From the IMG/VR virus record IMGVR_UViG_3300037400_004242: DNA of 64,000 bases. The stretch is one strand, 5' to 3'. Every line of letters starts with the position of its first letter. Position 1 is the stretch's first letter. Positions 10,133 through 57,208 of the stretch are shown here, piece after piece. The position numbers and the translations under genes are program-made. The DNA is from a virus. Taxonomy: Duplodnaviria > Caudoviricetes. The notes under the pieces were generated by a model. It did not search any database, was not told the origin of the DNA, and saw nothing but the letters and a program-made list of their open reading frames with translations.

Positions 10133-10146
10133 AGGAAGGGAAAATT

Positions 10147-12350: not shown

Positions 12351-12369
12351 AAGTTAGGATGGAGTATAA

Positions 12370-25999: not shown

Positions 26000-27922
26000 T
26001 TGTTTAGAGATTTAGTACAAGCTAAATCTCTTTTTTATATAATAAAACAATATAAAGAATGGAGGTATATATTGTTGAAAGATTCATTTTACAAAATGGC
26101 AATCAAAAGGAATCAATCAAAAGAAGCAAATGAATTACGAAAATATGCAAAACGAGAAATTCCGAAAATATTGATTGAAAAAGATGGAGTATATGCAAGG
26201 GATGAATCTTATTTTAATAATCCATTATATCATCAAACAAAATGCATTGAATGTCATAAAACGTTTTTATATAAGTATAAAAATGGAAAAGAACCTCCAA
26301 AATTTTGTTCAACAAATTGTAGACATAAACATAATCGAAAAAAAGTAATAAAAAAATGTATAGTTTGCGGAAATGAATATATAACAGATAGTTGTGACGA
26401 AAAATATGCTCAATTTTGTTCTGAAAAATGTTATCAAGAAGGATTAAAGAAAGCAAAAATTAATAGAACACCAATTTTAACATGCGTTAATTGTGGTAAA
26501 GAATATCCTTTATATACGAATACGAGTGGATTTTATGATTCATATCAATGTGAATGTGAAATGGAAATAAAACGCAATCAAAAAATCCATACTTGTTATT
26601 ATTGTGGGAAAGAATATTATACTAGTTCTAAGAAATCTAAATTTTGTTCTTTTCGTTGTTCATCGAAGCAAATGCGAAAAGATGTTATGTGGAAAAATTT
26701 AAATGAACATAAAAAAGAATATGAAAAATTTGCGAAAAGAAAATTACCATTAAATAACGAAGATGATTTTGAATGGATAGAAAAAAATGGTATATATGGA
26801 AAATCAGAAGAAGACTTTGATTATTTAAGTTACAATCCAAATGCTTTAAAAACTTGTAAACAATGTGGAAGAAAATATATATCGTCGAATAATGAAGATG
26901 GATATTGCAGTAGAAAATGTTTTTATGAATCAAAAAAATCTTATACTATTAAAAAATGTTTAAATTGCGATAAAGAATATTCTATAAACATTACAGATGA
27001 ACCATATTCACAATTTTGTTCTGATGAATGCGAGCAAGATTATTATGAACATATAAAAGAAAAATGTAAAGTCTATGATAGATTGCATAAATGTACATGT
27101 ATAAATTGTGGAAAAGTGTTTTATGATATAACAAATACAAGTGTAGAGTTTTGTTCTTATCAATGTTCTATTGATTTTAATCATAAACAAAAATTAATAA
27201 CTAAAAAATGTAAACAATGTGGTAAAGAATTTCAAACATATAATAATAGCGATTTTTGTTCTACTAGTTGTTCTTCAAAATATCATATAAAACATGGAAA
27301 ACGACCGCCAAAACAACATCATGCTTGGAATAAAGGATTAACTTCCGAAAATTGCAAAATTATTAAACATAATACAAAAAAGCAATCTATTTCTATGAAA
27401 AAAGGGATTGCTTCAGGAAAAATTAAAATGTATTTTAAAGGGAAACATTTGACAGAAGAACATAAAAAACATTGTTCAATTGGAGTCGCAAAAGCAATTC
27501 GAGAAGGTAGAAAACCCGCATTACCAAGATATATTAGTGGATTTTTTAAAGATATAGGACATTATGTTCGCAGTGGATGGGAATATAACTTTGCAAAAAT
27601 ATTAATTTATTTAAATCGTAATTATGAATATGAACCAAGAACGTTTTTAATAGATGGTGGAGAACAAACATATACTCCTGATTTTTATGATAAAGACAGA
27701 AATTTGTATTATGAGGTAAAAGGTTGGTTTCCAAAAGATGAACAAGAAAAATTTAAAAAATTTCGTGAACAATATCCAGATATAAAAATTCATCTATTAA
27801 AAGCTAACAAATTTAAAAAAATCTATTTTTCTTTTAAAGATAAAATCAAGATGTTGCCACTTTTTAATGTCAAAACAACAAAAATCGGAATCTTAAAAAG
27901 AAAAGATTTACAAAGAATTTAA
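26000..27922 (+). CDS. Multi-zinc-finger putative homing endonuclease (PD-(D/E)XK); true start probably about 26074-26096
   Basis: About 8 CxxC..FCSxxC repeats, AWNKGLT motif, RSGWE...YTPDF..YYEVKGW; a terminator-like hairpin overlaps the first annotated codons. Confidence 0.75.
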   Translation: MFRDLVQAKSLFYIIKQYKEWRYILLKDSFYKMAIKRNQSKEANELRKYAKREIPKILIEKDGVYARDESYFNNPLYHQTKCIECHKTFLYKYKNGKEPPKFCSTNCRHKHNRKKVIKKCIVCGNEYITDSCDEKYAQFCSEKCYQEGLKKAKINRTPILTCVNCGKEYPLYTNTSGFYDSYQCECEMEIKRNQKIHTCYYCGKEYYTSSKKSKFCSFRCSSKQMRKDVMWKNLNEHKKEYEKFAKRKLPLNNEDDFEWIEKNGIYGKSEEDFDYLSYNPNALKTCKQCGRKYISSNNEDGYCSRKCFYESKKSYTIKKCLNCDKEYSINITDEPYSQFCSDECEQDYYEHIKEKCKVYDRLHKCTCINCGKVFYDITNTSVEFCSYQCSIDFNHKQKLITKKCKQCGKEFQTYNNSDFCSTSCSSKYHIKHGKRPPKQHHAWNKGLTSENCKIIKHNTKKQSISMKKGIASGKIKMYFKGKHLTEEHKKHCSIGVAKAIREGRKPALPRYISGFFKDIGHYVRSGWEYNFAKILIYLNRNYEYEPRTFLIDGGEQTYTPDFYDKDRNLYYEVKGWFPKDEQEKFKKFREQYPDIKIHLLKANKFKKIYFSFKDKIKMLPLFNVKTTKIGILKRKDLQRI

Positions 27923-30862: not shown

Positions 30863-32695
30863 GTGGAATTTAATTCCGTAGAGCAAGTAAAGAAATATTT
30901 AAAAGAAAAAGATTTAGATTTTAATGATTTTAAATATGCAACAGATTTTTATTTTGATGAAGATGGAGCAGAATATAATCGTTTTTTTGAAGCTGTTTAT
31001 CCAATGGAATTTATTGATTTCGATAAGAATGAACAAATTTTAAAAGATATTGAAAAAAGCACAATAGATGATTTAGTAGATTATGAAATAAAGAGAAATA
31101 AAGATAAATTTCAAAATGAATATTCTGCATGGATACAAAATGAAGCGAATGTAAATGAAAAATTTACTTTTTCAGATGACTGTCTAAAAGAAATTGTAAA
31201 AGGTTATATTCATGATAGTGCATTTACCAATGGATTTAAGCAAGAAAAGAAAAAATATTATGATTATTTTGAAGCTGAAATTGGAAATGATGACTATAAA
31301 TATGTAGATGAAGAAAAAACAGATAAAACATATCAAAGTGCATCTGCATTGGATGAAGCAGATGATTCTATTGGAGATACCCATAAAATAGATTTTGGAT
31401 TTGATGTACAAGATAGAGATTATGCTTTCATTTATTTAGATGGAGATATAATTAAAGGAAAATTAAATCAAACACATGCGCAGATTTTAAAAGATTATTT
31501 AAAAAACAATGATAAAGAAGATTTAATTCCTGAAGACTTAAAAGATGGTGGAGATGTAGGAGATAGTAGACCGAGCATGAAACGTATGCAACGATTAACA
31601 GGGGAAGAAAATGTTGCATTTGGTAATGTTATTGGGAAAGTTGCTTTTATTGAAGTCGTAAATGGAATAGATGAAAATGAAGTAGCAAAAGAATGTATGA
31701 ATCAGTTGAATATTGATAAAGTATATTTTGCAAGTCATGCGAACAAAATGGTAAAACGTTTGGCAAAATGGGCAGTTGCAAGTAATATAAAATTTTCAAA
31801 TATAAATGATTTAAAAGATTACTTGGGTGCTGATTATAAAACATTCTTGAACGCACCTGCATGTATTCATAAAGACGGAATTATACAAGTTTTTGATATG
31901 TTATTCCCGACATCGAAGCGTAATAAAGATAGAAGTTTGAATGATAATGCATATCAAGGTGTAAATGAATTTGAACAAGGGCAATATATTCAAGGCATTT
32001 TTAAAAACAACATGTTGTTGAATCAATACAATGCATGGCTAAAAAAATACAATAGTTCTGATAATCTTTCGATTGATGAAAATTGTTTGGATGAAGTTAC
32101 AGATGATATGGTAGAAAATACCAATTTTGAAAATGAATTTAAAAGTGCAAAAAAAACATTTATTGTTGACCATGAGCAAGGATACCCAGGGTTTGGAGAA
32201 AATGGGTATAAAGGTATCAATGAAGATAAAGACAATGAAGTAGAAAAATTTAAAGATGTTCCAACCTTAGATGATAAAGTTGGAGATGTAACATATGTTA
32301 CAAAAGATTATGAACTTGATGTTGGAACACGAGATGGAGCATTTTTATATATTGATGGACAAATTTTGAAAGGTGGGAAAAATGAAACACACGCACAGCT
32401 ACTACAGAAATATATGGAAGAGGAAGGGAAAAAAGACGAAATCCCTGAAGACTTGGTACAAAATAATCAAGAAAATAGCAGACCGAGCGAAATCCGAATG
32501 AAACGTTTAACAGAAACTGAAGATGTTGCATTTGGAAGTCTTTTGAAGAATATTGCATTTATTGAAGTGTTTGAAAATGGTGCAGATGAAAATACTGTTG
32601 CTCAGGCTTGCATGAAAGAATTAGGCGTAAAAAAAGTATACTTCTTAGATGATAAGAATGTGCTGAAACGTCTTGCAAAATGGAATTGCTATTAA
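30863..32695 (+). CDS. Acidic tandem-duplicated protein (two ~300-aa units, each ending KRLAKW)
   Basis: Repeated RD.AF.Y.DG.I.KG...THAQ.L...RPS..RM.RLT..E.VAFG...AFIEV...KVYF...KRLAKW. Confidence 0.7.
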   Translation: MEFNSVEQVKKYLKEKDLDFNDFKYATDFYFDEDGAEYNRFFEAVYPMEFIDFDKNEQILKDIEKSTIDDLVDYEIKRNKDKFQNEYSAWIQNEANVNEKFTFSDDCLKEIVKGYIHDSAFTNGFKQEKKKYYDYFEAEIGNDDYKYVDEEKTDKTYQSASALDEADDSIGDTHKIDFGFDVQDRDYAFIYLDGDIIKGKLNQTHAQILKDYLKNNDKEDLIPEDLKDGGDVGDSRPSMKRMQRLTGEENVAFGNVIGKVAFIEVVNGIDENEVAKECMNQLNIDKVYFASHANKMVKRLAKWAVASNIKFSNINDLKDYLGADYKTFLNAPACIHKDGIIQVFDMLFPTSKRNKDRSLNDNAYQGVNEFEQGQYIQGIFKNNMLLNQYNAWLKKYNSSDNLSIDENCLDEVTDDMVENTNFENEFKSAKKTFIVDHEQGYPGFGENGYKGINEDKDNEVEKFKDVPTLDDKVGDVTYVTKDYELDVGTRDGAFLYIDGQILKGGKNETHAQLLQKYMEEEGKKDEIPEDLVQNNQENSRPSEIRMKRLTETEDVAFGSLLKNIAFIEVFENGADENTVAQACMKELGVKKVYFLDDKNVLKRLAKWNCY

Positions 32696-32704
32696 TATAA
32701 TATA

Positions 32705-32733
32705 AAGATAGGTTGTAGATAGCCTATCTTTTT
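32705..32733 (+). terminator. Intrinsic terminator
   Basis: AAAGATAGGTT-gtaga-TAGCCTATCTTTTT. Confidence 0.6.
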
Positions 32734-32765
32734 CTATTTTGTTTATAGAAATATTTTAGAAGGAC

Positions 32766-33563
32766 GTGAATAAAATGGAAGATATTTACATTATGGATAT
32801 AGATGAATTAAAAGAATTGTTAAAAAATAATTATAACCAATGTTTAAAAAATATTGATAAAAATTCTAATATGAAAAAATATTTTAGTGAAGATTATTTG
32901 AAAAATTATTTTTCAAAAGTGGATAAAGAAAATCCTGATGGAGATATAGATTTATATGTTTATAATTTAATGGATGAATTGGATTTTAGATATACATGTG
33001 AAGATAACATAGGTGCGTATATAGATGATGAATTTGAAATGGCAGATGATTTACCTGATGATATACTAGCAGAATTATCAGATGAATATGGATATTATCA
33101 AAATTATTTAAAATGTAAAGATAAATATTTCCCCGATACAATAGAATATATGGAGGATTTGAAGAATAAAAAAGATAATATTGGAGAAAGTACTTTTTTA
33201 ACATATAAAATTGATTATGGAAATCGAGAATATCCATTTGTTTATGTAGATGGAAAAATATACAAAGGTAAATCTATGGAGACTCATACACAATTAGTTG
33301 AACGTGTGTTTTTAAAGCAAAAACCAAATGATGATGACATAACACGTTTGGATAATAATGAAATGGAAAAAGATGTAGGTTCGGATGTATTTGCTTTTGG
33401 TCATATATGTCAAGAGATGGCATTTATAGATAATAATTTATCAAATTGTACAAAAGAAGAAGTAGCAGATGCATTAAAATCACAGACAAATGTAAATAAA
33501 GTGTATTATTATGATTATAGTGATAAACAAGTAACGCGACTTGCTAAATTAAAAACTGTATGA
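32766..33563 (+). CDS. Third copy of the same acidic domain (ends TRLAKLKTV)
   Basis: REYPFVYVDGKIYKG..ETHTQL...FAFGH...AFID...KVYY...RLAK. Confidence 0.7.
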   Translation: MNKMEDIYIMDIDELKELLKNNYNQCLKNIDKNSNMKKYFSEDYLKNYFSKVDKENPDGDIDLYVYNLMDELDFRYTCEDNIGAYIDDEFEMADDLPDDILAELSDEYGYYQNYLKCKDKYFPDTIEYMEDLKNKKDNIGESTFLTYKIDYGNREYPFVYVDGKIYKGKSMETHTQLVERVFLKQKPNDDDITRLDNNEMEKDVGSDVFAFGHICQEMAFIDNNLSNCTKEEVADALKSQTNVNKVYYYDYSDKQVTRLAKLKTV

Positions 33564-33576
33564 AAGGAAAGATTTA

Positions 33577-34755
33577 ATGAAGCGTTTAGGAATGAATAAA
33601 ATGACAGTTGTGTATTCACAAGAGCCTTTTCCAAAAGATGAAATGAAATCTATATTTTTAGCTGGTCCAGTACCTAGAAAAGAATATGAATTATCATGGA
33701 AAAATGAAGCATTAGAAATTTTGGATTCAATGGGATATAATGGCGTTGTATATATTCCTGAAAATAGAAATCCTGAACAAAAAGAAGGGAACTTTGATTT
33801 GCAAGCGCAATTAGATTGGGAATATACTTGTATGTGTGCTTGTGATGCTATTGTATTTTGGATTCCTAGAGAAATGCGTTCGGATTTTGAAATGATTGGA
33901 TTAACAACAAATGTAGAATTTGGTCGTTTTCTTAATTCAAATAAACTGTTTTGTGGTTGTCCTGATGAAGCACCAAGAATGGAATATTTGAAATTAATTT
34001 CAAGAGATAAGTATGAGTGGCATAATACACTTGAAGATACTTTGAAATCTGTGGTACAATATTTAGGTAGAGGAATGTATCGAGAAGATGAAGAAATAAA
34101 AATTCCTTTGCATATATACAAATCAAAACAATTTCAGAATTGGTATAAACAACAATTAAATGTAGGAAATTATTTAACTGGTTTTAATATGGAATATGAA
34201 TTTGTTATGCCAAAAGCAAAACAAATGTTTTTAGAGATTTTTCATCCATCGGTTTATATAGCAAAAGAAGATAGAGTAAAAGATAATGAATTTGTAGTGG
34301 CAAGAACGGATATGAGTTATATTCTTGCTTATTATAAGAAAGAAGATATAATGGATTCAGAAATTGTTTTATGTGAAGAATTTCGTAGTCCGATAAACAA
34401 CAATGAAGAAATGGTTTTTGAATTACCAGGTGGTAGTTCTCTTAATCCAAACGATGATGTTCTTTCGACTGCTTCTAAAGAATTAGAAGAAGAAACAGGG
34501 TTAAAATTAGATAAAAATCGTTTTGAACAAGTAGCATTAAAACAAAGCGCTGCTACATTGTGTTCTCATAAGATAGCTTTATTTAGAGTGGAATTAACAG
34601 AAGAAGAAATCAATTCGCTTAAAAAAGATAATAGTATTCATGGCGTAATCGAAGATACAGAACGAATTCATTTACACGTAATGAAGGTATCTGAAGCATT
34701 GGATATGGTAGATTGGACAAATACAGGTATGATATTAAATGGAATAAAGGAATGA
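33577..34755 (+). CDS. Nucleoside 2-deoxyribosyltransferase-like domain fused to a NUDIX hydrolase
   Basis: SIFLAGP...Q.DWE...DAIVFWIPR..TTNVEFG; NUDIX box ELPGG...A.KELEEETG. Confidence 0.8.
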   Translation: MKRLGMNKMTVVYSQEPFPKDEMKSIFLAGPVPRKEYELSWKNEALEILDSMGYNGVVYIPENRNPEQKEGNFDLQAQLDWEYTCMCACDAIVFWIPREMRSDFEMIGLTTNVEFGRFLNSNKLFCGCPDEAPRMEYLKLISRDKYEWHNTLEDTLKSVVQYLGRGMYREDEEIKIPLHIYKSKQFQNWYKQQLNVGNYLTGFNMEYEFVMPKAKQMFLEIFHPSVYIAKEDRVKDNEFVVARTDMSYILAYYKKEDIMDSEIVLCEEFRSPINNNEEMVFELPGGSSLNPNDDVLSTASKELEEETGLKLDKNRFEQVALKQSAATLCSHKIALFRVELTEEEINSLKKDNSIHGVIEDTERIHLHVMKVSEALDMVDWTNTGMILNGIKE

Positions 34756-34759
34756 AATT

Positions 34760-35875
34760 ATGTTAAAACATTTAAATTTTCATATTAATCAGATTTATTT
34801 AATGATGGGGTATCAATGTAATTTAAAATGTAAATATTGTATTGAACATAATGTAGTAAATCATGCGATGCCAAAGGAAATTAATCCACAGATTGTTGAT
34901 TGGATGATAGATATTGCTCAAAATATAGGTGGTTTTAATGTATTATTTTGGGGTGGTGAACCACTTGTATATTTTGATACTATGAAAAAAGTTGTTGAAA
35001 TGATAAAAGAAAAAGATATAAATCATAATATTTCTTTTTCGATGGTAACAAATGGAAAATTGCTAAATGATAAGACGATTCCGTGGATAAAAGAAAATTT
35101 AAAAGGTTTTGGTTTGTCGTGGGATGGAAGGAATACAGAAAGAACTCGTGGATATGATGTTATCAAGGAGAATAAAGAAAATTTATTTAAATTAGATGAT
35201 TGGGGATTTACAGGAGTTCTTTCTTCTTTTAATTATCCAAAAGATTACTTAGATGACTGTTATGAAATTGAGAAAGAATATGGAAAAGAAATCCATGTAA
35301 ATATAGACAATCTTATGCAATATGAAGATTTACCTGATGCAGAATTAAAAAAGTTTGATGAAAGTAAGTTTTATGGTCAAATGCGAGATATTTGCGATGC
35401 GTATATTGATTACTATATGAATGGTACAGAAATAAATCCAAATTATATACGTTGGATAGAAGAAGAATTTCAACGTATTGCAGAAGGAAAAAAAATAACG
35501 CGCTTGTATTGTGGAAACGGTGGAGAAAATATTAATTTAGATTTACAGGGAAATCTTTATTGCTGTCATGGTGATATAGACCCTGTTGGAACGATTAATG
35601 ATAATTATTTTGATGTGTTAAAGAACATTAATGATAAAGATAATACAATTCAACATGGTATAGATGGATGTAATGAATGTCCTGTACAAGTAATGTGTAG
35701 AAATGGATGCCCAAAAGTTCCGCAACATTCTAGGGATGAATTTTACTGTACAATGAATAATTTAAGATTTTATCCAATTTTAGAAACATATTATGAAATT
35801 GAGCGACTAAAAGGAGAAGAATTTTTTCAGAAGTTACAAGAGAGCAAGAAATTTATGGAGAGAGAAATTAAATGA
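34760..35875 (+). CDS. Radical SAM/SPASM enzyme (locus I, A)
   Basis: CNLKCKYC, FWGGEP, TNG, SWDG; SPASM CGNG..DLQGNLYCCH...CNECPVQVMCRNGCP..C. Confidence 0.9.
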   Translation: MLKHLNFHINQIYLMMGYQCNLKCKYCIEHNVVNHAMPKEINPQIVDWMIDIAQNIGGFNVLFWGGEPLVYFDTMKKVVEMIKEKDINHNISFSMVTNGKLLNDKTIPWIKENLKGFGLSWDGRNTERTRGYDVIKENKENLFKLDDWGFTGVLSSFNYPKDYLDDCYEIEKEYGKEIHVNIDNLMQYEDLPDAELKKFDESKFYGQMRDICDAYIDYYMNGTEINPNYIRWIEEEFQRIAEGKKITRLYCGNGGENINLDLQGNLYCCHGDIDPVGTINDNYFDVLKNINDKDNTIQHGIDGCNECPVQVMCRNGCPKVPQHSRDEFYCTMNNLRFYPILETYYEIERLKGEEFFQKLQESKKFMEREIK

Positions 35876-36963
35876 GAAATTTTCTTAAATCAAATATATC
35901 TAATATCTTTATTATGCTTGGACATGAGTGCAATTTACAATGTAAATATTGCTTACAACATGACGTAGTAAATGTTGCTCTAGATAAAAAAATTAATCCT
36001 GATATTTATTATTTTATTAATGATGTTGCTCGTAGTCAAGAAAATAGAGTTGGTTTACAATTCTATGGTGGTGAACCGCTTGTATTTTTTGATAAAATAA
36101 AAGAATTTGTGAATGGTTTACAAGAACATAATGTTCCTAATAATGTTTACTGCACGATGATTACGAATGGTAAATTATTAGATGAGGAAAAAGTAAAATA
36201 TATTAATCAGAATTTTTCTCATGTTACTATTAGTTGGGATGGAAGAAATTCTATTAAAACTCGTGGATATGATGTTATTAAAGAAAACAAAGAAAACATT
36301 TTTAAATTAAAGAGTTTCAATTTTTCAGGTGTACTTTCTTCATATAATTACATTAAAGACTATTTAGAAGATTGTGAACAAGTAAATCGTGATTATGTAG
36401 AAAATTATTATGGAAGAACATTGTACTTTAATGTTGATGATTTACTTGATGTAAATATGCAAAATCAAGATTTAAAAAATATTGATTTAGACATGGCGGC
36501 AATACAGATGAATGAATTGTGTGAAGAATATTATAATTTTGTCACGCAACATCAACCGATTAGTGTGATTCGTAAGCGATATATTGAGGAAAAAATAAAT
36601 TTCTTGCGTTCAAGTGTAAAGTCAAAACAATATCAGCCAATTCGTGATAGATGCGGAAATGGTTGTGAAGTTTTGAATATGGATTTAAGTGGTAATCTTT
36701 ATAAGTGTCATAATACAGATGATAAATTGGGAACAATTTATGACAATTATTTTGATTATATGAAAAAAGTTTTTGAATTGGATAAGGTAAATGAAAACTC
36801 AAAACGTTGTAATGAATGTCCTGTACAATTGATGTGTAGAAATGGATGCCCTCTTGTTGGAAAAGAAGCAAGAGAAGGATATTATTGTAACATGATTGTT
36901 TTTATGAATTACCCAATCATAAAACTTGTAGAAAAATTGGGTGGTGAAATAGATGTCAATTGA
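35872..36963 (+). CDS. Radical SAM/SPASM enzyme (locus I, B; paralog of A)
   Basis: CNLQCKYC, FYGGEP, SWDG; CGNG..DLSGNLYKCH...CNECPVQLMCRNGCP. Confidence 0.9.
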   Translation: MRNFLKSNISNIFIMLGHECNLQCKYCLQHDVVNVALDKKINPDIYYFINDVARSQENRVGLQFYGGEPLVFFDKIKEFVNGLQEHNVPNNVYCTMITNGKLLDEEKVKYINQNFSHVTISWDGRNSIKTRGYDVIKENKENIFKLKSFNFSGVLSSYNYIKDYLEDCEQVNRDYVENYYGRTLYFNVDDLLDVNMQNQDLKNIDLDMAAIQMNELCEEYYNFVTQHQPISVIRKRYIEEKINFLRSSVKSKQYQPIRDRCGNGCEVLNMDLSGNLYKCHNTDDKLGTIYDNYFDYMKKVFELDKVNENSKRCNECPVQLMCRNGCPLVGKEAREGYYCNMIVFMNYPIIKLVEKLGGEIDVN

Positions 36964-37687
36964 ATATACTGCGCCAATATCGAATAAAGAAAATCCTGCT
37001 TTAAAAGTAACAAAGTTTGAACCAATGATAGGTTGGGACCCAAGTACACGAATTGTTAATAAAGTAGATTTAAATGCGATTGACCAAGCAATTACAAGAT
37101 TGGAGAAAATTAAGTCTCATGTACAGAATTGTGATTGCTTTGATGTTGTTACTTGTCAAACAATTTCTTGTCAGGAATGGACAAAGGGAACAGGAAACTG
37201 TAATTGGCAAAAATGTCAATCTGCAAAAGAATGTATAGATTATATTGAATTTGGTACATATGCAGGAACAGATATGGATAAGCCTATTTCTGCACCAGGC
37301 AAGTGGACACCAACAACTGCAAAAGGTGGTACAAGTCCAAAACCTGAGTATGAAATTAGTAAAACTCCAACAGGTTCTTCTACTCCTTTTCGTAGAAAAG
37401 CATATACATGTCAGGAAATGTCTTGCCAATTTATAACTTGTCAAACAATTATTTGTCAAAGTGGTTTACTTTGTCAGACTTGCCAATCTTGTGAAAGATG
37501 TCAAGTTTGTGAAAGTTGTGAATCTGAATGTTTATGTCAAACTTGTCAGATATGTCAAGATAAAACAATTCCACATAATGACTGTCAAAAGAAATATTGT
37601 CAAGATTGTCAGACGTGTCAAAATTTGATTTGTGAAAATGTAAAGTGCCAAGCGTATTTTACGGATGGTAAAGATTTACCAAATTAA
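36953..37687 (+). CDS. Cys-rich C(Q/E)-repeat protein, putative radical SAM substrate
   Basis: About 27 Cys, most followed by Gln or Glu (CQTCQSCERCQVCESC); overlaps the stop of the upstream SPASM gene. Confidence 0.7.
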   Translation: MSIEYTAPISNKENPALKVTKFEPMIGWDPSTRIVNKVDLNAIDQAITRLEKIKSHVQNCDCFDVVTCQTISCQEWTKGTGNCNWQKCQSAKECIDYIEFGTYAGTDMDKPISAPGKWTPTTAKGGTSPKPEYEISKTPTGSSTPFRRKAYTCQEMSCQFITCQTIICQSGLLCQTCQSCERCQVCESCESECLCQTCQICQDKTIPHNDCQKKYCQDCQTCQNLICENVKCQAYFTDGKDLPN

Positions 37688-37729
37688 AAAACTTATACTT
37701 CATATTTAAAAATTAGAGATAAATATGAG

Positions 37730-38086
37730 GTGATTTTAATGGAAGAACAGTCTACACAACCAGTACAACAACAACCTGTTCAAGCTCCGATGCAATCAAA
37801 GTTTTCAAATTTTTTTCATAGTATTATGTCTGTGGATGAAACACGAGTATCTGTATTGATGATAGGATTTATGTTATCATTATTTTTTGGTGGATATATG
37901 TATTTGTCAACGGGTGCATTAAGTCAAGTTTGGGCAGATATTGTTGAAACATTGATTTTTGCAGTTGCAGGTATCAATGCTGTTAATAGTGTCGTTGGTG
38001 GGAATAATAAAATTGGTCAGATATTGAGGGGAGCAACAAATAATCCACCTCCACCACCAATGCCACCAAGAGAGGAAAGAAAGTAA
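37730..38086 (+). CDS. Two-TM membrane protein (holin-like)
   Basis: Two hydrophobic helices and a Pro-rich, charged C-terminus. Confidence 0.4.
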   Translation: MILMEEQSTQPVQQQPVQAPMQSKFSNFFHSIMSVDETRVSVLMIGFMLSLFFGGYMYLSTGALSQVWADIVETLIFAVAGINAVNSVVGGNNKIGQILRGATNNPPPPPMPPREERK

Positions 38087-38156
38087 GGTTATGTATTTTT
38101 TAGGGAATTTTTAATAAATTCCCTTTTTATTTATGTTTAAAAGAAGGTTCTAGAAT

Positions 38157-43329: not shown

Positions 43330-44637
43330 TTGAAACTTAGTTCAAATACAAAGAAGAAAACTATTTCATTTTACTCATATCATTTAAATCATGAGAAATA
43401 TGAACAGATTGAAAATTTAGCAAAACAAATTCAAGCATATCAAAATTTCATTTCTGAGATTTACTACAACACTTATTTTCAGAAACAAAAGATTTCTTGT
43501 GGTAAATTCATCACAGAAATGAAAATATATCGTGATAAGGAATTTTCCTCTTCATTTTTTCAACAGATATGTAAACAAGTATATGAAAAATATGAAAAGA
43601 AAAAACCTCCAAAACAGCAAGTGGTTTTCAAGAAATTATCCTTTGTTGGTATCAATCTAATGACAAAACCTTTTATTGAAGAAAGCAACAACAAATATAC
43701 AAACGGAATTATCAATTTTAATATACCTAAACAAGGAGTAATTTGTATTCCATTTAGATATTCAAAAAAGTATCATGGTGATTTGTCAGATATTACTTAT
43801 TCCATGACAGGTGCAAACAAATCTCAATTTCAAAAACTGTATACTTGTACATTGTTAGGTAAAGATAAACTAAAAATTACTATTGTCGAGGATGATAACA
43901 GAACATATACTACATCAATCAATCACATCGAAGGTATAGATGTAAATGTAAAACATAACCTTTTACAATGTTCTGATGGATTTTCTGTAGATTATGATAG
44001 AAAATTTGTTACTAAAATTATTAAACAAAGAAAAAAGTATGATAGAATTGTATCTACCAAAATGAAAAGAAACATTGACCATACAATGACTGAAAAACAA
44101 TATCATTTAAGTAAGAAAAATTCACGAAGAAGTATTTCTATGGTGGAACAATGTTTGGTAAAATTATTTAAGCATTGTAATAAAAATGGTATTGACCATT
44201 TAGTTTTTGAAGATTTAGGTAAGTTTACAGGTAGACTAAAAATTACCAACAAAGAATTTGATGTTAACTATAAACGACTAATGTACGCAGTTAAACTTGT
44301 AGATATTAAAAACATTGCAGAACGAATTGGAAAGAAATATGGAATCACAATATCTTTAACCAATCCTGAATATACAAGTCAAGAATGCAGTTGTTGTCAT
44401 CATATTTCTAAAAAGAATAGGCAAACGCAAGAATTGTTTAAATGTGAAAATTGTGGATTTGAATTAAATGCAGACTTAAATGCATCCATCAATATAAAAA
44501 ACAGGATTCTCTCAAACGTTTTGAGAGAATCCTGTCATCAGGAAATTGAACCAAATAAATTCATTCCAATTTACAAGAACTACGAAGAATTTAAAACAGC
44601 ATACATAGAATTAATTAAACAAAATACCGTATCTTGA
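43330..44637 (+). CDS. tnpB: TnpB RNA-guided endonuclease (IS200/IS605 or IS607 type), no adjacent transposase
   Basis: RuvC-I GIDVN, RuvC-II VFEDL, Zn finger TSQECSCC..FKCENCG, RuvC-III NADLNASINI. Confidence 0.9.
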   Translation: MKLSSNTKKKTISFYSYHLNHEKYEQIENLAKQIQAYQNFISEIYYNTYFQKQKISCGKFITEMKIYRDKEFSSSFFQQICKQVYEKYEKKKPPKQQVVFKKLSFVGINLMTKPFIEESNNKYTNGIINFNIPKQGVICIPFRYSKKYHGDLSDITYSMTGANKSQFQKLYTCTLLGKDKLKITIVEDDNRTYTTSINHIEGIDVNVKHNLLQCSDGFSVDYDRKFVTKIIKQRKKYDRIVSTKMKRNIDHTMTEKQYHLSKKNSRRSISMVEQCLVKLFKHCNKNGIDHLVFEDLGKFTGRLKITNKEFDVNYKRLMYAVKLVDIKNIAERIGKKYGITISLTNPEYTSQECSCCHHISKKNRQTQELFKCENCGFELNADLNASINIKNRILSNVLRESCHQEIEPNKFIPIYKNYEEFKTAYIELIKQNTVS

Positions 44638-45934: not shown

Positions 45935-48643
45935 ATGTTAAATAAAGATATAACATTTTCATTAGATAGTTACGATAAGAAAAAATTCAAGCATGAAGTA
46001 TATGACCACAAGGATGTTTTCTATAGTAGAGAATATATTTATAATTTTAAATTTACAGTAAATATAGATAAAAATGAAATGCCAATTAATCATTTAATTA
46101 TTTATCGTAATGGTGAACCATATAACAATTGTAAGATTATACAAGTTGGGAATAAATCTTATGAGGTTAAAGATGATGTATGGATTCGTTATGGAAACAC
46201 ATGTTATGGTGTAGATGTCGTTCTTGAAGGTGGAAAAACATATCATAATTATTTCTATTTGAAAATTTTACAATCATATCAGCCAAATGATATTCGTTTT
46301 ATAAGTTTTGCAACGTATGGATTACATGAAAATTATTCTATGTTGGATGTAATTGCAAACATTCAGACAAAATATCAAATTGATAGAGTTTTATTATATG
46401 AACATATTTGTCCATTGACAGAGATAGATGAAAAAAGTCGTATATCTAAAATAAGTGAAATGAATGAAAGATATGATTCCAAAGAAATTAAATGGAATTA
46501 TTTGGGAAAAATGGATTTAATAAATCATCAATATCGTTTTCGTTATATGTTGTTTGATACGTCATTAACTGAGAATCGTACAGTATTATATAAGGCTGTA
46601 GTCGTAACAACAAATGAAGTTCGTAGAAGTGCAATTATGTCTACCATTATTAAACCTAATACAATGTCTGTTAATATATTTACATATATGAATACAGAAA
46701 CAAAAGAAAGATACGATATATATGGTGGATGTGTAGGACGTATTGATGCAAAAATTGATGAATACGACAATCCTGAATATAATGGCAAGATTTTTCAACT
46801 TTTAATAGATAAAAGAGACGATGAACAAAATTATTTAAAGTTGCTTGTCGGCGATGATTATAAATTTGAAGCAGATAATTATCATGTTGAATATAAAAGA
46901 AAGAAATTTAATCGTGTACAAACAAATCGTGACCCTAATATTTTTGAAATTTATGGTGATGGATTGGCTACAAAAGTTATTAATGAGGAAAGAGATTTAT
47001 ATCGTAGAGATAATTGTAGATTTTTAGTAACTTTATATTGCGGTGAAGATACTTTTGTTTCATTTAAAATTACTCCATTAAATGATAATAATTTGGCTGT
47101 TAACACGAATAAGACAGAAAATAATATTGTAAAATATTCTTATAATGGTGAATCCAAGATTATGGATAAACAATATTTGGATAAGACTGTAGATGTAAAT
47201 GCAATTCAAGGATATTATACATATAATAGAAAAACAGAAAATCTAATTTTTACAAATATTGATACAAAGGAACAACATATTACAATTATTCCTGATAAGC
47301 CAAAAGAATTATTGTTTCAGGAATTTGATTACATTACATATAACGATAAATATTTTTTCTTTGTCAACTTAGATAATAAAGGAATCCATATTACACGTTA
47401 TGATGGCGTTAATATTGATAAAATTGAATATTTTACAGAGATTATTAAGAGTTCATTAGATTGGATAAAGTCTCAGCAAATATTAAGTTTTGATAAAAAT
47501 AATAATTTAAATTTGAAATTTATATCTTCTAATGGCAGTAATTTTTTAAAGAAAATTGTTGTAGAAAATAATGATTTATCAGTTATTGATTATAGTGATA
47601 TGTTAGTAAATGTATTTAATGATATTCGTAAGCAGATGTTAAATTATGTTGATAATTTAAATTCTGTGACCGTTGGAAAAGTCGAATATATTATTAAAGC
47701 ATCAAATGTTTATGATACATTAGAGCATAAATTTGAGGATATGGGATATACGGATTTTAATTTGAAATTTACGACGCAATATTTTACATATCAAATCAAA
47801 TTCCCAATAGATGTTAAATTTTTAAACAAGACAACAAATGTTTATGTTCGTTTTCAAACGTCTATGACTGTTACTTGTAGAGAAGATGTTATTTTTTATG
47901 AGACGAATTATAGCTTAGGAAATCCAAGATTCGATATTGATATTGATAGTATTAATTTAACATATCATTATACAGATAATGGGAAAAATTTAATTCCTCA
48001 AGTTGGGTATGAAAAATTAAATCAAAAATATTTCTTGAAATTTAGTCAACCTGTAAACACATATACAAAAGAAGATTATGCAATTTTTAAACGTTGCGAT
48101 ATATATAATGGTGGAGCTAGTCTTTATAAGATAAATCCCGAAGATGTATATGGAAATGGGACAAAAGAAAAAACATTTAGGTATTCAGATTTATGTAGAC
48201 TACGTATTTTTATGCTAAATTATAAAGAGTACATGATTATGCGTTTTATGGGTGATAAATGCATGATGACAGTTGTTAATGTAGAATTGAAAGAGCAAAT
48301 ATCACAAGAAACTATTACAACAGATATGTATTTCGATAGTTTGTTCTATTTTACGAAAGAACAGCTTGTATCATTAGATGATTTGTTAAGTAGTGCATAT
48401 TTATATGATTCTGTAAAACGAAAAATGTATATTTGTGCATTGAGTGATTGTTATGTATTAGCTGTTGGTGGAACATATGATACATCATTTCATAATATGG
48501 AGAAATCGACTAGTTTAAGTGGTATTCCGTTAGATAATATGAAAACATATTTGTCTGAATATGAATTTAGTTATCCATTAAACATTAAAAATCGTAATCA
48601 TTATTTAAATGATATAGTCTTTAGTGAAGGGGTATATTCATGA
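45935..48643 (+). CDS. Large beta-rich hypothetical protein, possibly structural
   Basis: 902 aa, Tyr/Asn-rich; GAAAGGAG RBS; coupled to rSAM locus II by ATGA overlap. Confidence 0.6.
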   Translation: MLNKDITFSLDSYDKKKFKHEVYDHKDVFYSREYIYNFKFTVNIDKNEMPINHLIIYRNGEPYNNCKIIQVGNKSYEVKDDVWIRYGNTCYGVDVVLEGGKTYHNYFYLKILQSYQPNDIRFISFATYGLHENYSMLDVIANIQTKYQIDRVLLYEHICPLTEIDEKSRISKISEMNERYDSKEIKWNYLGKMDLINHQYRFRYMLFDTSLTENRTVLYKAVVVTTNEVRRSAIMSTIIKPNTMSVNIFTYMNTETKERYDIYGGCVGRIDAKIDEYDNPEYNGKIFQLLIDKRDDEQNYLKLLVGDDYKFEADNYHVEYKRKKFNRVQTNRDPNIFEIYGDGLATKVINEERDLYRRDNCRFLVTLYCGEDTFVSFKITPLNDNNLAVNTNKTENNIVKYSYNGESKIMDKQYLDKTVDVNAIQGYYTYNRKTENLIFTNIDTKEQHITIIPDKPKELLFQEFDYITYNDKYFFFVNLDNKGIHITRYDGVNIDKIEYFTEIIKSSLDWIKSQQILSFDKNNNLNLKFISSNGSNFLKKIVVENNDLSVIDYSDMLVNVFNDIRKQMLNYVDNLNSVTVGKVEYIIKASNVYDTLEHKFEDMGYTDFNLKFTTQYFTYQIKFPIDVKFLNKTTNVYVRFQTSMTVTCREDVIFYETNYSLGNPRFDIDIDSINLTYHYTDNGKNLIPQVGYEKLNQKYFLKFSQPVNTYTKEDYAIFKRCDIYNGGASLYKINPEDVYGNGTKEKTFRYSDLCRLRIFMLNYKEYMIMRFMGDKCMMTVVNVELKEQISQETITTDMYFDSLFYFTKEQLVSLDDLLSSAYLYDSVKRKMYICALSDCYVLAVGGTYDTSFHNMEKSTSLSGIPLDNMKTYLSEYEFSYPLNIKNRNHYLNDIVFSEGVYS

Positions 48644-49692
48644 GCCATGTTTTACAAATTCAAATGACAAATCAATGTAATTTAAAATGTGAATATTGTT
48701 ATATTCATCAAAATAATGATAAAATGTCGTTTGAAATGTTAAAACAACAAATTAAATATGTAAAACAATTATCAAACAGAATAGACGATGATTTTGATGG
48801 AAAATATGATGTTACATATTTTGGTGGGGAGCCGTTAATTGAATATCAAAATATATTAAAATTTGATGAATATTTAAAACAATCATTAAATGTGCAACAT
48901 TCTTTCATTCAAACAAATGGTATTTTGTTAGATAAAGAAAAAATTAAACAATTAAGAAAAAAGAATATTTATATTGGAATTAGTTGTGATGGTTGTAATG
49001 ATAAGAATCATATATATATTGAAAAAATTTTTCAAAATAAATGGTTGCCTGTAGAAGCAAAAATGATGATAAATAAGTATAACGTTTTTGACTTAATGAA
49101 AAATGTTATATATTTTTATCGTCAAGCGATGAAAGTTAATTGTGGAAATTTATATATAGATGTTTCTTTTGTAAAGGACAATACATGGGATAAACATTCT
49201 ATTATAGAATTAAGACAACAATTAAAAAATTTGTATGATTTTATGATGATGAATTATAGAGATTATCATCGTTGGATTGATATTGGATTTGTTAATAGAA
49301 TTTGCGCAAATATTTTGAACAAAAAACGAAATTATATTTGTTTTGCAGGAGTGAATGGATATAATTTAACTCCGGATGGAATTATTTATCCATGTGCTAG
49401 ATTTTATACAAATCATAAATATCCATTGTTTGATTCAAATAGTTATAAATTTTATGATAAAAATATAGATATAATAAAGCATTGGAATCGGACAAAAAAT
49501 GATAAATGTATGAATTGTGTATTGAATCAATTTTGTAATCAAGGATGCTTATATTCTCAAATTAATAACAATGGAATTATTGATATGTATTGTGATGTAT
49601 TAAAGTCATGCTATCATATGGTAACAACTTTGTATAAAACGATGAAAAATGAATATAATGTGAATATATTAAAGAAAGTTGGTAAGATTTAA
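48640..49692 (+). CDS. Radical SAM/SPASM enzyme (locus II, A)
   Basis: CNLKCEYC, YFGGEP, QTNG; CFAG..TPDGIIYPC...CMNC..NQFCNQGC..C. Confidence 0.9.
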   Translation: MSHVLQIQMTNQCNLKCEYCYIHQNNDKMSFEMLKQQIKYVKQLSNRIDDDFDGKYDVTYFGGEPLIEYQNILKFDEYLKQSLNVQHSFIQTNGILLDKEKIKQLRKKNIYIGISCDGCNDKNHIYIEKIFQNKWLPVEAKMMINKYNVFDLMKNVIYFYRQAMKVNCGNLYIDVSFVKDNTWDKHSIIELRQQLKNLYDFMMMNYRDYHRWIDIGFVNRICANILNKKRNYICFAGVNGYNLTPDGIIYPCARFYTNHKYPLFDSNSYKFYDKNIDIIKHWNRTKNDKCMNCVLNQFCNQGCLYSQINNNGIIDMYCDVLKSCYHMVTTLYKTMKNEYNVNILKKVGKI

Positions 49693-50757
49693 ATGGAAAA
49701 ACCACCTATTAGTGTTTCAATAAATATGGGAAGTGCTTGTAACTTTCGCTGTAAATATTGTTTTGAGGTAAAGAATGGTGCAGTTAATGATTCTAAAAGA
49801 CTTCAACAAAAAGTGAAAGAACGAGTTATTGATGTTATTAAATTATTGACTGAAACAAATAAAGTTCGTATTGAATTTTGGGGTGGTGAGCCGACAGTAT
49901 ATTTTGATGACATTTATGAAATTATTGAAGCAACGAAAGCATATGAAGAAGTAACCTATTTTATGTATACAAATGGTTCTTTGGTTGAAAAATATAGTAA
50001 AGAATTGCTTCAAATAAAAAATGATGTTGGGCATCGTTTTCAAGTACAAGTTTCTTATGACTATCATGATTTAAAAAATAATCAACGCATTCAATTGAAT
50101 AAGACAGTTGAAGAAACTGAAAAAATGGTATTAGATGCGATTCATTTTTTTGATGATAATGATTTTTTCTTCGGAACAAAAACAACTTGTACAATGCATG
50201 ATTTAGAAGAGAATTTATTTCATCAATATATGAATTTTGAAAATTTAAATAAAACATTAAAACATAAAGTAAATTTTAATCCAACACCTGATACATTAGG
50301 TGTTGGAAATGTTAATTATAATAAAATAGAAAAACAATTTATTCAATTGTTAAAATATTTTGTTAAAAATAAAAAGTTTGGGAAAACAGGATTCATGTGG
50401 TTTGATATGCCATCTAATGCAGATTGTACAGGTGGAATACATTCGTTTCAAATAGATGTTGACGGCAGAGTTACATATTGCCATGGATGTTTATATAGTA
50501 AGAAAGATTTGTTTTACACTTCTGTATTTGATGATAATTTTCTTCATAAAGTAGATTATAATTATCTTGCAGTATATAGAAAATACAAGAAAAATAGTCA
50601 ATGTTCAGATTGCAATTCACAATTCTGTTTCAGATGTAACGCAATTAATAGTGATGGAAACATAGAAGATTGGGATAAATCAAATATTCCTGATGTTTGT
50701 AAATTATATAATAAAATTTCAGATTATATCCGCGCCTATTACAAAATAACTCATTAA
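49693..50757 (+). CDS. Radical SAM/SPASM enzyme (locus II, B)
   Basis: CNFRCKYC, FWGGEP, YTNG; CTGG..DVDGRVTYCHGC...CSDCNSQFCFRCNA..C. Confidence 0.9.
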   Translation: MEKPPISVSINMGSACNFRCKYCFEVKNGAVNDSKRLQQKVKERVIDVIKLLTETNKVRIEFWGGEPTVYFDDIYEIIEATKAYEEVTYFMYTNGSLVEKYSKELLQIKNDVGHRFQVQVSYDYHDLKNNQRIQLNKTVEETEKMVLDAIHFFDDNDFFFGTKTTCTMHDLEENLFHQYMNFENLNKTLKHKVNFNPTPDTLGVGNVNYNKIEKQFIQLLKYFVKNKKFGKTGFMWFDMPSNADCTGGIHSFQIDVDGRVTYCHGCLYSKKDLFYTSVFDDNFLHKVDYNYLAVYRKYKKNSQCSDCNSQFCFRCNAINSDGNIEDWDKSNIPDVCKLYNKISDYIRAYYKITH

Positions 50758-50819
50758 TTTTACGATGTATTTTATTTTTCTAATAGAATAGGTATTGAAA
50801 AATTTGGAGTTGATAATAT

Positions 50820-52397
50820 ATGGCGATATGTACGGACACAAAATATGTAGAGGGATTTTATCAAATTGTAGAACCTCCACAATTTTTAAAAGACATGTTT
50901 CCAATTTGTAGACCTTTTGGTGACCCCGGTGATGACAAAAGTTATGAATTCGGGAGTAGTTATTGGAGCGGGTTCGATTCTACTTCTCGTGATGAAGCAT
51001 CAAGTCGTGGATTAAGTAATCGTAAAGGTCGTTTAAAAGATTCTTTTAGTGTTACAGATAAAGTTACGAATAAAGATTGGAACTGTGCAATTGTAAAATT
51101 GAAACAAGAATTTGCTATTCGTTGCGGTTTTAAGCATAATTGGATTCCATTTGTAGAACAAACGGGAGATTTTGGATTATCCAATCATTTAGGATATTTC
51201 CGTGATGGTATTAAAGGCGGAAGTGATGGTGATAGTGACCCAACGCAAGGCGAAAAAACGGATATTGTATATCGTAGAGATATGCAAAAAATATACTTAG
51301 ATATTATTCGTTTGCTAGACTATGAAGTTCCAATGTATTCCGTAGAAGATGGAAGCAAAAATCCTCGTTTCCCAGAGTTTAGAGGTATTTTTTCTAATGA
51401 TTATGGTAAAGTTGGGGACTACAATTCTATTTTAAAAGAAATTGTTGATATTGATGATGCTGATAAATTTTTAAAACAAGGGAATAATGTGTTTTTACCT
51501 CCTGATAATAAAGCATCTGAGAAAAAATGGAAATATTTTCATTTAAATGATAATGTTATTGGCTATCCTGGTGAACCAGCTTCTTCTTGTGCAAAATATG
51601 AAGGAAAATTAGAGAGTTTTGGTGATAACTATCCACCTGGTGGTTCAATTAACATTGACCAGCTAAACGATTGGGAAAGTCGTTATACATTAGGTACTGA
51701 TGCATATGATTTTAAAAAAATGACCAAGAAACGTATTTTGCAATTCATTGGTGCGTCTCAACCTTGGTATCGTAAGTCCGATTCATTATTGGATTGGGAC
51801 GATGGTATTTTTATTGATTATTGGCAACCAAAAAGAGATACTGATGATTTCGCATACGCTCAAGAAATAGTTCCTAATACATATTATCCATATGGAAATA
51901 AGGATTATACAGAAGATGGTGGAGCAGGTGGAAAAGAACCAAAGCCATCAGCATTATATAAAGCTGTACAAGAATTTAGAAAGAAATTTATAAATCCTGC
52001 AAAAGAAACTACAGATAATGATTTATTAGTTTCTGCCAAAATTTCAAAAACAGCTACAGTTGATAGAGATTTATATGGTAATCCAATTACACAAACTGTA
52101 GAAGAAGATGCATCATTTTCAGTAGCATATGTTATGAGACATGCTTATACAGAGTTTCAAACGGTAGATAAATATGGCGATGATGGAAAACTAATTAGTA
52201 GAATGACAATCGGCGGTGATAAAATTATCGTTGATGCTAACTCTGTCGCAAATGTGTTTATGAAAACAATAAATAAAATTTCAGATATTTGCGTTTGTAA
52301 CTGCAATTATTGTTCTTGCTTTGGTAATGAAGTTACATGCTTATGCTATGTTGTTAAGGTAACAGGTTGGTGCTATTCATACATGTATGTATATTAA
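50820..52397 (+). CDS. Protein with Cys-rich C-terminus, putative structural protein and rSAM substrate
   Basis: Ends ICVCNCNYCSCFGNEVTCLCYVVKVTGWCYSYMYVY (8 Cys); follows the SPASM pair; Gly/Asp-rich body. Confidence 0.6.
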   Translation: MAICTDTKYVEGFYQIVEPPQFLKDMFPICRPFGDPGDDKSYEFGSSYWSGFDSTSRDEASSRGLSNRKGRLKDSFSVTDKVTNKDWNCAIVKLKQEFAIRCGFKHNWIPFVEQTGDFGLSNHLGYFRDGIKGGSDGDSDPTQGEKTDIVYRRDMQKIYLDIIRLLDYEVPMYSVEDGSKNPRFPEFRGIFSNDYGKVGDYNSILKEIVDIDDADKFLKQGNNVFLPPDNKASEKKWKYFHLNDNVIGYPGEPASSCAKYEGKLESFGDNYPPGGSINIDQLNDWESRYTLGTDAYDFKKMTKKRILQFIGASQPWYRKSDSLLDWDDGIFIDYWQPKRDTDDFAYAQEIVPNTYYPYGNKDYTEDGGAGGKEPKPSALYKAVQEFRKKFINPAKETTDNDLLVSAKISKTATVDRDLYGNPITQTVEEDASFSVAYVMRHAYTEFQTVDKYGDDGKLISRMTIGGDKIIVDANSVANVFMKTINKISDICVCNCNYCSCFGNEVTCLCYVVKVTGWCYSYMYVY

Positions 52398-52674: not shown

Positions 52675-53013
52675 ATGTTAGTCTACGTATTAAATAAAAA
52701 TGAAAAACCTTTAATGCCTTGCAGTCCCAGAAAAGCTAGGATACTTCTTAAAGAAGGTAAGGCAAAAGTAATTAGACGAGAACCTTTTACTATACAATTA
52801 CTCTATGGTTCTAGTGGATACAAACAGAAAGTAAATCTCGGCGTAGATGCTGGCAGTAAACATATAGGTTTATCTGCGACTACCGAGAAGAAAGAACTTT
52901 TCGCCAGCGAAGTTAAATTAAGAACTGACATCGTAGATTTATTGTCTACGAGACTTCAGTATAGAAGAAGTAGAAGAAATAGAACTACTATAAGAAGGGG
53001 AGACTTAATATGA
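52675..53013 (+). pseudogene. iscB: Truncated IscB (PLMP domain, RuvC-I, start of bridge helix)
   Basis: MLVYVLNK..KPLMPC.P.KARILLK.GKA, LGVDAGSKHIG, RRSRRNR, then a stop; HNH and RuvC-II/III are absent. Confidence 0.85.
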
Positions 53014-57206: not shown

Positions 57207-57208
57207 AA

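Follow-up and report, generated by a model that had tools for sequence, protein, structure and literature searches.

A phage cassette of radical SAM/SPASM enzymes and Cys-Gln repeat proteins as a candidate system for cross-linking virion appendages

Described maturases and the phage locus

Ranthionine links have been demonstrated in a protein-sized substrate, CrpA, of the enzyme CrpC from Methanococcus voltae, in a study that does not mention phages (PMC13692751). Here, we compare this and other described systems with a locus at positions 34760 to 37687 of the 64,000-nucleotide stretch IMGVR_UViG_3300037400_004242 (Caudoviricetes), called the window below. In this locus, two genes for radical S-adenosylmethionine (SAM) enzymes with a SPASM domain are followed by a gene for a protein rich in Cys-Gln pairs (CQ protein). 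An earlier note on this DNA had proposed that the phage cross-links one of its own proteins, for instance a fibre or appendage. We find that the enzyme and CQ genes are a real and widespread phage cassette.

CrpC resembles the enzymes of the window in being a seven-Cys SPASM enzyme encoded beside a protein-sized, repeat-built substrate whose C-terminal part is rich in Cys; CrpB is a second, related protein of that system. However, it is archaeal and cellular, it has a RiPP recognition element (RRE; RiPP, ribosomally synthesised and post-translationally modified peptide), and its substrate has a 17-residue repeat with links in ACAGM, CAVD, PCAGD and CPLVL motifs. CteB, the SCIFF maturase (TIGR03974; PDB 5WGG), and PapB, the freyrasin maturase (NF047865), share with the phage enzymes the auxiliary-cluster ligands and a His after the second SPASM Cys, and the CX3Q/E spacing of the CQ proteins resembles the CX3D of PapB. 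Yet the phage enzymes score at a quarter to a third of the cut-off and lack an RRE, the phage substrates have 85-530 aa and 10-32 Cys where these systems have a 45-aa peptide, and the acceptor of CteB and PapB is Thr or Asp. The analogy with QhpD/QhpC (TIGR03906), drawn in the earlier note, holds in that the thioethers stay inside a folded protein subunit. It does not extend to the enzyme or the residues: QhpD uses an RRE and makes three links from Cys to Asp or Glu, whereas here the residue is mostly Gln, and the locus has neither an RRE nor dehydrogenase genes. NxxcB/NxxcA of Streptococcus, likened here by its described chemistry and not by sequence, forms its thioether on a carboxamide side chain, at Asn C-beta, of which Gln C-gamma would be the next homologue, but makes a single link in a short peptide. 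The CXXX-repeat system (TIGR04115/TIGR04114) and the Cys-every-fifth system (CefB, NF038107), both defined bioinformatically, also place a radical SAM gene beside periodic-Cys targets, but the phage periods are 3 and 5 with an invariant Gln, and none of the 30 CQ proteins of the window's type that we scanned matches an NCBIfam target model. Campylobacter phages CP220 and CPt10 are likewise large gut phages and have 11-12 radical SAM genes, but these were read as metabolic helpers, and no Cys-rich substrate was discussed (PMC2853527). Judged by its sequences, the phage cassette would thus work like CrpC/CrpA and QhpD/QhpC, placing thioethers in proteins, yet it falls outside each named family on score and RRE.

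The window is a stretch of a jumbo phage genome, AT-rich and with nearly every gene on the + strand. The locus comprises the following features:

34760..35875, + strand: radical SAM/SPASM enzyme 1 (371 aa), lineage-specific paralogue; CxxxCxxC at 20-27, seven SPASM Cys, no RRE
35872..36963, + strand: radical SAM/SPASM enzyme 2 (363 aa), family-typical copy directly upstream of the CQ gene
36953..37687, + strand: type A CQ-repeat protein (244 aa, 27 Cys, 18 CQ and 4 CE), presumed substrate
36953..37129, + strand: Cys-free N-terminal unit of the CQ protein (aa 1-59, helix 37-54), related by homology to the N-termini of prophage type A proteins and, via these, to one triple-repeat unit
37130..37240, + strand: first Cys block of the CQ protein (aa 60-96; 7 Cys)
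37241..37408, + strand: Cys-free Thr/Pro/Gly/Lys-rich insert of the CQ protein (aa 97-152)
37409..37654, + strand: main CQ ladder (aa 153-234; 20 Cys, 19 of them followed by Gln or Glu; period 5, then period 3)

Consecutive open reading frames (ORFs) overlap by 4 nt and then 11 nt, in line with the coupling of both enzyme genes to the Cys-rich gene that had been noticed before. Family profile scans of the neighbouring genes matched no peptidase or transporter, and the earlier remark that no peptidase or exporter is adjacent therefore stands.

Enzymes, CQ proteins and their linkage

Both enzymes carry CxxxCxxC at residues 20-27 and seven SPASM Cys (251/269/304/307/313/317/330 in enzyme 1, 261/279/313/316/322/326/339 in enzyme 2), which are invariant among 84 enzyme homologues. 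They belong to the radical SAM proteins by PF04055 (51.6 and 36.1 bits, cut-off 29.5) and are 42% identical to each other; enzyme 2 also exceeds the cut-off of the SPASM model TIGR04085 (33.9 bits against 27). The two paralogues with a full SPASM set seen in the earlier note are thus confirmed in the seven-Cys form, in which one site of auxiliary cluster I stays open. The family search that the note had recommended succeeded for SPASM and failed for the Cys-repeat maturases, with 41.5 bits against a cut-off of 350 for TIGR04115 (CXXX-repeat maturation). Indeed, every score of both enzymes with maturase-family models is far under the NCBIfam cut-off. PapB is the best family (107.9/95.8 bits, cut-off 340), SCIFF maturases give 81.6/78.2 bits (cut-off 425), QhpD 74.7/69.2 bits (cut-off 453, with no dehydrogenase subunit genes nearby) and anSME 61.7/58.3 bits (cut-off 349), and the CrpC model TIGR04463 is absent among the 25 best NCBIfam matches listed for the enzymes. 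We do not assign them to any of these families.

The best match among solved structures is CteB (E 1.6e-31), followed by TigE. By sequence alignment, C261/C279/C326 and C313/C316/C322/C339 of enzyme 2 correspond to C344/C362/C413 and C400/C403/C409/C432 of CteB. This points to a CteB-like three-Cys cluster I with an open site and a four-Cys cluster II, and the same 3+4 ligation bears out the kinship with thioether-type maturases from which the earlier note had argued. In PapB and Tte1186, the open iron of cluster I is where the substrate Cys binds (PMC10177961). In 80 of the 84 enzymes, the 10-29 residues ahead of CxxxCxxC are too few for an N-terminal RRE, and no PqqD/RRE family was found among the scanned neighbours, a scan that a remote or divergent RRE encoded in trans could escape. 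At six catalytic-proximity positions (PMC10288494; F,F,T,S,H,Q in CteB), enzyme 2 has L-Y-I-S-H-N and enzyme 1 I-W-V-S-H-G, each identical to CteB at two of six. The resulting profile scores are 14 (enzyme 2) and 11 (enzyme 1) against CteB, -4 against anSME, and 1 and -1 against the sactisynthase StsB; enzyme 2 comes closest to CteB. The GYW motif, which in cyclopropyl synthases belongs to the ligation of auxiliary cluster I, occurs in 0 of 84 enzyme sequences, which places them outside TigE/TvgB.

Both paralogues fall inside one jumbo-phage clade (SH-aLRT 98 in a quick tree with midpoint root), and four close jumbo-phage loci (L002, L007, L165, L166) have a single such enzyme. On this phylogenetic basis, the pair appears to be a lineage duplication and not a conserved unit, and the three-gene unit whose co-occurrence the earlier note wished to follow is not conserved. 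Just upstream, at 33577-34755, lies a nucleoside 2-deoxyribosyltransferase-like/Nudix fusion, which is deleted in the 98%-identical relative L258. The single-enzyme loci and this deletion rule out the three-gene unit and the fusion gene as essential parts.

The CQ protein has exactly 27 Cys, followed by Gln in 18 cases and Glu in 4, with 9 CxxC and 8 Cx4C gaps; the approximate counts and the rhythm described before were accurate. Against these 22 pairs, 20,000 residue shuffles of the protein gave a mean of 4.0 and a maximum of 11. Compared with its homologue in L165, 27 of 27 Cys and 18 of 18 Gln are conserved while 9 Gln codons differ silently (uncorrected pN/pS 0.49). Since Cys and Gln are kept across synonymous codon changes, the ORF encodes a protein under selection, and a DNA-repeat artefact is ruled out by these changes and the shuffles. 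The insert (aa 97-152) is missing in the closest relatives, some of which have other inserts near that position. AlphaFold2 predicts one confident helix (residues 37-54), as expected from the helical segment noted ahead of the repeats, with low confidence elsewhere (mean pLDDT, the predicted local distance difference test score, of 47.6). We found no family for CQ proteins in Pfam, NCBIfam, PHROGs or the ESM Atlas, and a single CQ sequence as direct query gave almost no matches, so that relatives were reached via the enzyme alignment. At 244 aa, the presumed substrate is, as had been pointed out, far longer than a typical RiPP precursor; together with the lack of a double-glycine site in 54 CQ homologues and of a peptidase or transporter match among neighbours, this separates it from that class. 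At L042:4077-4896, adjoining four SPASM genes, CQ proteins have several Cys replaced by Asn (NQS repeats) with Gln retained, which hints that their Gln ladder may have a structural role.

To study linkage, we compared around 240 enzyme loci, which are related, so that the counts below are not independent events. A CQ-rich ORF lies within 2.5 kb of the enzyme in 7/8 loci with an enzyme score of at least 300 bits, 69/83 at 190-300 bits, 1/26 at 110-190 bits and 1/97 below 110 bits. In other words, a CQ gene is near 76 of 91 close enzyme loci but only 2 of 123 distant ones, and in no case does it lie on the opposite strand. Close homologues routinely lacking a Cys-rich neighbour, which would have spoken against the earlier proposal, are not what we observe. 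With enzyme identities of 33-73%, the linkage extends from prophage contigs of 24 kb up to jumbo phages, and it is lost outside the clade. For most relatives, the setting is a prophage-like region of Acidaminococcus, Megasphaera, Succiniclasticum or related gut Bacillota. Many close loci without a CQ gene have instead a protein with a CxCxC tail (CNCDC-type), which our pattern search undercounts (L005, L032 and L099 have such tails). At L005:8865-11074 (Sporomusaceae), an enzyme of the clade stands in a non-tail context, downstream of a gene whose 161-aa product has a long Gly-Asp repeat and a CNCDC tail.

A type B profile revealed a second CQ protein elsewhere in the closest viral genome; it is known from relatives and not from the 64-kb window. 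On a 347,833-bp contig, 98% identical to the window over the locus region, the enzyme/type A locus is near 118 kb and the type B gene (219 aa, 26 Cys, 19 CQ/CE) near 313 kb, around 195 kb away. Type B lies 3' of a fibre-like gene whose orthologue is a weak tail-fibre match, and the same remote arrangement is found in L250 and L262. The earlier idea of one cross-linked phage protein would apply to type A, but a second presumed substrate is encoded far off in the same phage species. Orphan type B genes, at L255:8001-8660 (contig ERZ28436045 NODE_1), at L247:4741-5415, and in L250 and L262, are flanked by a fibre-like gene and an NrdG-like activase gene, an arrangement that is kept across the jumbo lineage, far away from the enzyme genes. 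The window's 212-aa ORF at 53715 had seemed to resemble an L251 protein, but comparison did not support this.

Tail context, the helical unit and the proposed modification

Among 70 non-jumbo loci, 68 have tail genes nearby and 60 have two CQ genes, one of each type. In L096, the genes for tape measure, distal tail and other tail parts lead to the tail fibre gene; next come the enzyme, CQ A, CQ B, a Hint-like ORF and a second enzyme, and then candidate genes for holin and lysin. In some homologues, a LamG lectin domain precedes a type A unit with its CQ tail, and the B protein of L251, which adjoins an enzyme of the same clade, starts with a long-tail-fibre connector-like domain. The fibre or appendage suggested in the earlier note is thus favoured by the tail modules and the lectin and fibre fusions of relatives, although the window's own locus is outside a tail module. 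In 46/70 loci, a Hint-like domain lies 3' of the CQ genes, and several CQ tails are fused to one (L096:9813-10208; P0133, P0150, P0158, P0209; L178:7448-8353), which suggests self-processing or ligation at the C-terminus. Two accessory genes of the prophage cassette (L097:10151-10936 and 11964-12626) occur in 59 and 57 of the 70 loci, with a second, distinct SPASM enzyme; no homologue was detected in the window.

The N-terminal unit gives a further connection to phage structural proteins. A type A N-terminus profile retrieved 305 representatives, and the best 149 include 66 CQ proteins and 63 proteins with Cys-poor tandem copies of the helix motif. Exactly three copies are present in 57 of these 63, mostly C-terminal, and the triple repeat, predicted as three helices (pLDDT 89), forms the C-terminal end of viral Ig and Fn3 proteins. 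In one siphophage, which lacks a radical SAM gene, a Cys-free triple-repeat protein occupies the same genomic slot, flanked by tail genes and lysis genes. Profile comparisons with one repeat unit give homology probabilities of 97.6% for prophage type A and 95.9% and 91.9% for the two halves of type B, and jumbo A and B match their prophage counterparts (98.0% and 96.6%). A hidden Markov model of the Cys-free repeats alone did not detect the window's CQ protein. Hence, by profile homology, the window's helix is related to the Cys-free triple repeat transitively, via prophage type A. Because one plus two units make three, these data suggest a three-unit A+B bundle. A homotrimer prediction of the N-terminal 73 residues scored 0.06 and weighs neither way. 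The helix is hard to read as a cleavable leader because it is internal, behind a lectin head, in some homologues; an internal helix may still be the binding site of the enzyme. The triple repeat itself appears to be an unnamed three-helix domain of around 110 aa (P0178, P0183, P0194 and 54 others; L263:9165-11096), which ends phage Ig/Fn3 and bacterial surface-type proteins and is a candidate anchoring domain. It has no Pfam match in the four carriers scanned, and a comparison of its model with solved folds and BFVD gave no clear match (best VIA Z 8.8, a designed helical filament, uninformative for a helical bundle).

We propose that RRE-less, CteB/PapB-like radical SAM maturases act on the virion fibre or appendage subunits A (244 aa) and B (219 aa). 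A, with one helical unit, and B, with two, would join by their N-termini into a three-helix module, which single-chain phage Ig/Fn3 proteins would carry as a triple repeat. A substrate Cys would then occupy the open iron site of auxiliary cluster I, the 5'-deoxyadenosyl radical would abstract a hydrogen from a neighbouring side chain, and the product would be a non-reducible sulfur-carbon bond of the ranthionine type, repeated many times along the ladder. Finally, the stapled tail would stiffen or protect the appendage in the anaerobic gut, where disulfides form poorly. More speculatively, each paralogue might serve one of the two proteins, A or B, or one kind of block, period-3 or period-5. 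In ranthionines described so far, the accepting carbon adjoins an amide, hydroxyl or acid group (Asn, Thr, Asp, Glu; PMC8326336). In the phage proteins, the residue after Cys is Gln or Glu in 85-86% of cases at spacing 3 or 5, and Asn or Asp in 88/118 at spacing 2. The favoured acceptor would be the carbon beside the side-chain carbonyl of Gln/Glu (Asn/Asp in CxC tails), and the alternative a Ser/Thr at +2, as in CteA. Period-3 blocks yield CX3Q/E, the spacing of CX3D in PapB, and only the +1 offset is common to both periods; taken at face value, this offset would mean a small ring, an inter-chain link, or a Gln serving recognition or packing with Ser/Thr at +2 as acceptor.

Taken part by part, the enzymes very probably modify the CQ proteins covalently, the substrate is quite likely a virion appendage, and the modification is somewhat more probably a Cys thioether than something else. 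That all three hold together, with Cys-carbon thioethers installed in A/B fibre subunits, we regard from these sequence comparisons as evenly balanced. The most specific version, a two-subunit A+B appendage built on a split three-repeat helical anchor, with RRE-less enzymes laying ladders of Cys-to-Gln(C-gamma) thioethers, possibly inter-chain or between adjacent residues, is doubtful.

Several observations weigh against this proposal. Modification of A and B and their place in the virion are deduced from gene and sequence data, and the reaction type is extrapolated from around 25% identity by enzymes that reach 96-108 bits where the PapB cut-off is 340 and that lack an RRE; enzyme 1 has a proximity profile that fits TigE (14) slightly better than CteB (11). 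The relatedness of the loci lowers the weight of the linkage counts. A 500-kb phage (L003/L004) has the enzyme but no CQ gene within 8 kb, type B has no SPASM enzyme within 8 kb on the 347,833-bp contig, and the five jumbo-lineage loci, including that of the window, have no tail match and one CQ gene, of type A. The triple repeat is matched directly by jumbo A and B at only 37% and 34% probability, and among the isolated phages of INPHARED, neither a close enzyme nor a CQ protein occurs. Finally, we know of no characterised radical-SAM Cys-Gln thioether, and CxxC ladders are also classic metal-binding motifs.

The last point leads to a rival explanation in which the Cys ladders are metal or iron-sulfur arrays, serving as Zn/Fe clamps of fibres or for storage of Fe-S. 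The radical SAM proteins would then load these arrays, sulfurate them, or have a different tail protein as their target. Metal binding is known for phage tail tips and fibres, type A homologues show CxxC more often than any other spacing (222 gaps), and every cassette offers other candidates for modification, such as CxCxC-tailed fibres and accessory ORFs. We nevertheless find this rather unlikely, as it leaves unexplained both the near-invariant amide or acid after each Cys, switching between Q/E and N/D with the spacing, and the tight link to one maturase-like clade. The same virion proteins could also be modified by other chemistry, through conversion of Cys to an aldehyde as by anSME-like enzymes, a carbon-carbon or intra-residue ring, or a change of Gln. 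That the enzymes lack an RRE and act on a protein, as anSME does, would fit, as would the low scores with all family models and the second-best structural match to TigE, a cyclopropyl synthase acting on repeats whose profile fits enzyme 1. But the score of -4 against anSME and the missing GYW motif point the other way, and the seven-Cys set, open cluster I and strictly conserved substrate Cys suit thioether chemistry; this alternative is unlikely.

It is quite improbable that A and B are instead RiPP-like precursors, in which the helix is a leader and the cross-linked core a non-virion product (for host takeover, superinfection exclusion or signalling) freed at lysis. The tail-module position in 68/70 loci, the lectin and fibre-connector fusions ahead of the helix, its homology to a folded Cys-free domain, and the lack of protease, exporter and double-glycine site are hard to reconcile with it, even though the layout resembles leader plus core, many homologues have only 85-135 aa, some have a C-terminal or adjacent Hint domain, the CQ core resembles that of SCIFF, and the window's locus is surrounded by nucleotide-metabolism genes. 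Lastly, the genes could form a travelling cassette with no enzyme-substrate relation here, the enzymes serving glycan, cofactor or nucleotide pathways of the phage. These phages have many radical SAM proteins (10 matches in G001) and glycosylation clusters, and L003/L004 lack the CQ neighbour; however, the persistence of the linkage from 24-kb prophage contigs to jumbo phages at 33-73% identity, its disappearance outside the clade, and the overlap of enzyme and CQ genes make this very improbable.

If thioether stapling of appendage subunits is true, the chemistry of radical-SAM peptide maturation becomes part of virus morphogenesis, and phages gain a disulfide substitute able to form in an anaerobic cytoplasm. 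The known maturases would be joined by RRE-less ones able to introduce many thioethers into long proteins, perhaps along with a Cys-Gln link; were the ladder Cys-to-Gln(C-gamma), the cross-link would be new and the virion protein the first of its kind to be stapled by enzymes. In the literature, of which few subscription journals were covered, we found no phage SPASM enzyme described as modifying a virion protein. Some unexplained radical SAM genes of large gut phages would also find a function (CP220/CPt10, PMC2853527). Small cassettes (99 and 134 aa, with one main enzyme) are found in prophage-like regions of cultured Megasphaera and Acidaminococcus strains, and the idea is therefore directly testable.

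Neighbouring genes and other features of the window

Three further features of the window are listed here:

14412-15251: major head protein gene
32735..32749, + strand: candidate phage promoter motif TATTT-N6-TAGA, directly 3' of a terminator-like hairpin at 32704-32731
37730..38086, + strand: two-helix membrane protein (possibly holin-like), with its own TATTT-N6-TAGA copy at 37703 and a terminator-like hairpin at 38102-38124

The TATTT-N6-TAGA motif (among others at 30646, 32735, 37703, 41005, 41048, 50773, 57140 and 62446), a candidate phage promoter, has 9 copies on the + strand and 2 on the - strand of the window; 6 are intergenic, and 8 lie within around 105 bp 5' of a start. Because of the terminator-like hairpin and this recurring motif, one transcript from 32766 probably covers a 265-aa ORF, the deoxyribosyltransferase/Nudix gene, both enzymes and the CQ gene. 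The 265-aa ORF belongs to acidic paralogous repeats at 30863-33563, together with a two-copy 610-aa ORF; these are separate genes in L001. The membrane protein, though a conserved neighbour, is probably not part of the cassette because L003 keeps its gene without a CQ gene: at L003:7241-9571, the enzyme and membrane-protein genes are retained and the CQ gene is absent between them.

A second SPASM pair (48640-49692 and 49693-50757, in the region 45935-52397, + strand) forms long branches far from the clade of the first locus. Its best match is PapB, under the cut-off, and it is flanked by ORFs of 902 aa and 525 aa, the latter with a CxCxCxxC cluster at its end; it is probably an independent system of the same logic. 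Elsewhere, from sequence only, we noted clusters of glycosyltransferase-like and short radical SAM genes at 6700-13440 and 54229-61300 (CNLNCKGC at 8376, 58813 and 59559) and, at 24066, a gene that probably encodes a nucleotide-sugar dehydrogenase. The window also has several likely homing endonuclease genes (15339-17570 and 26000-27922, the latter with HNH matches) and, by eye, a TnpB/IS605-like ORF at 43330-44637 and a short RRXRR-like fragment at 52675-53013.

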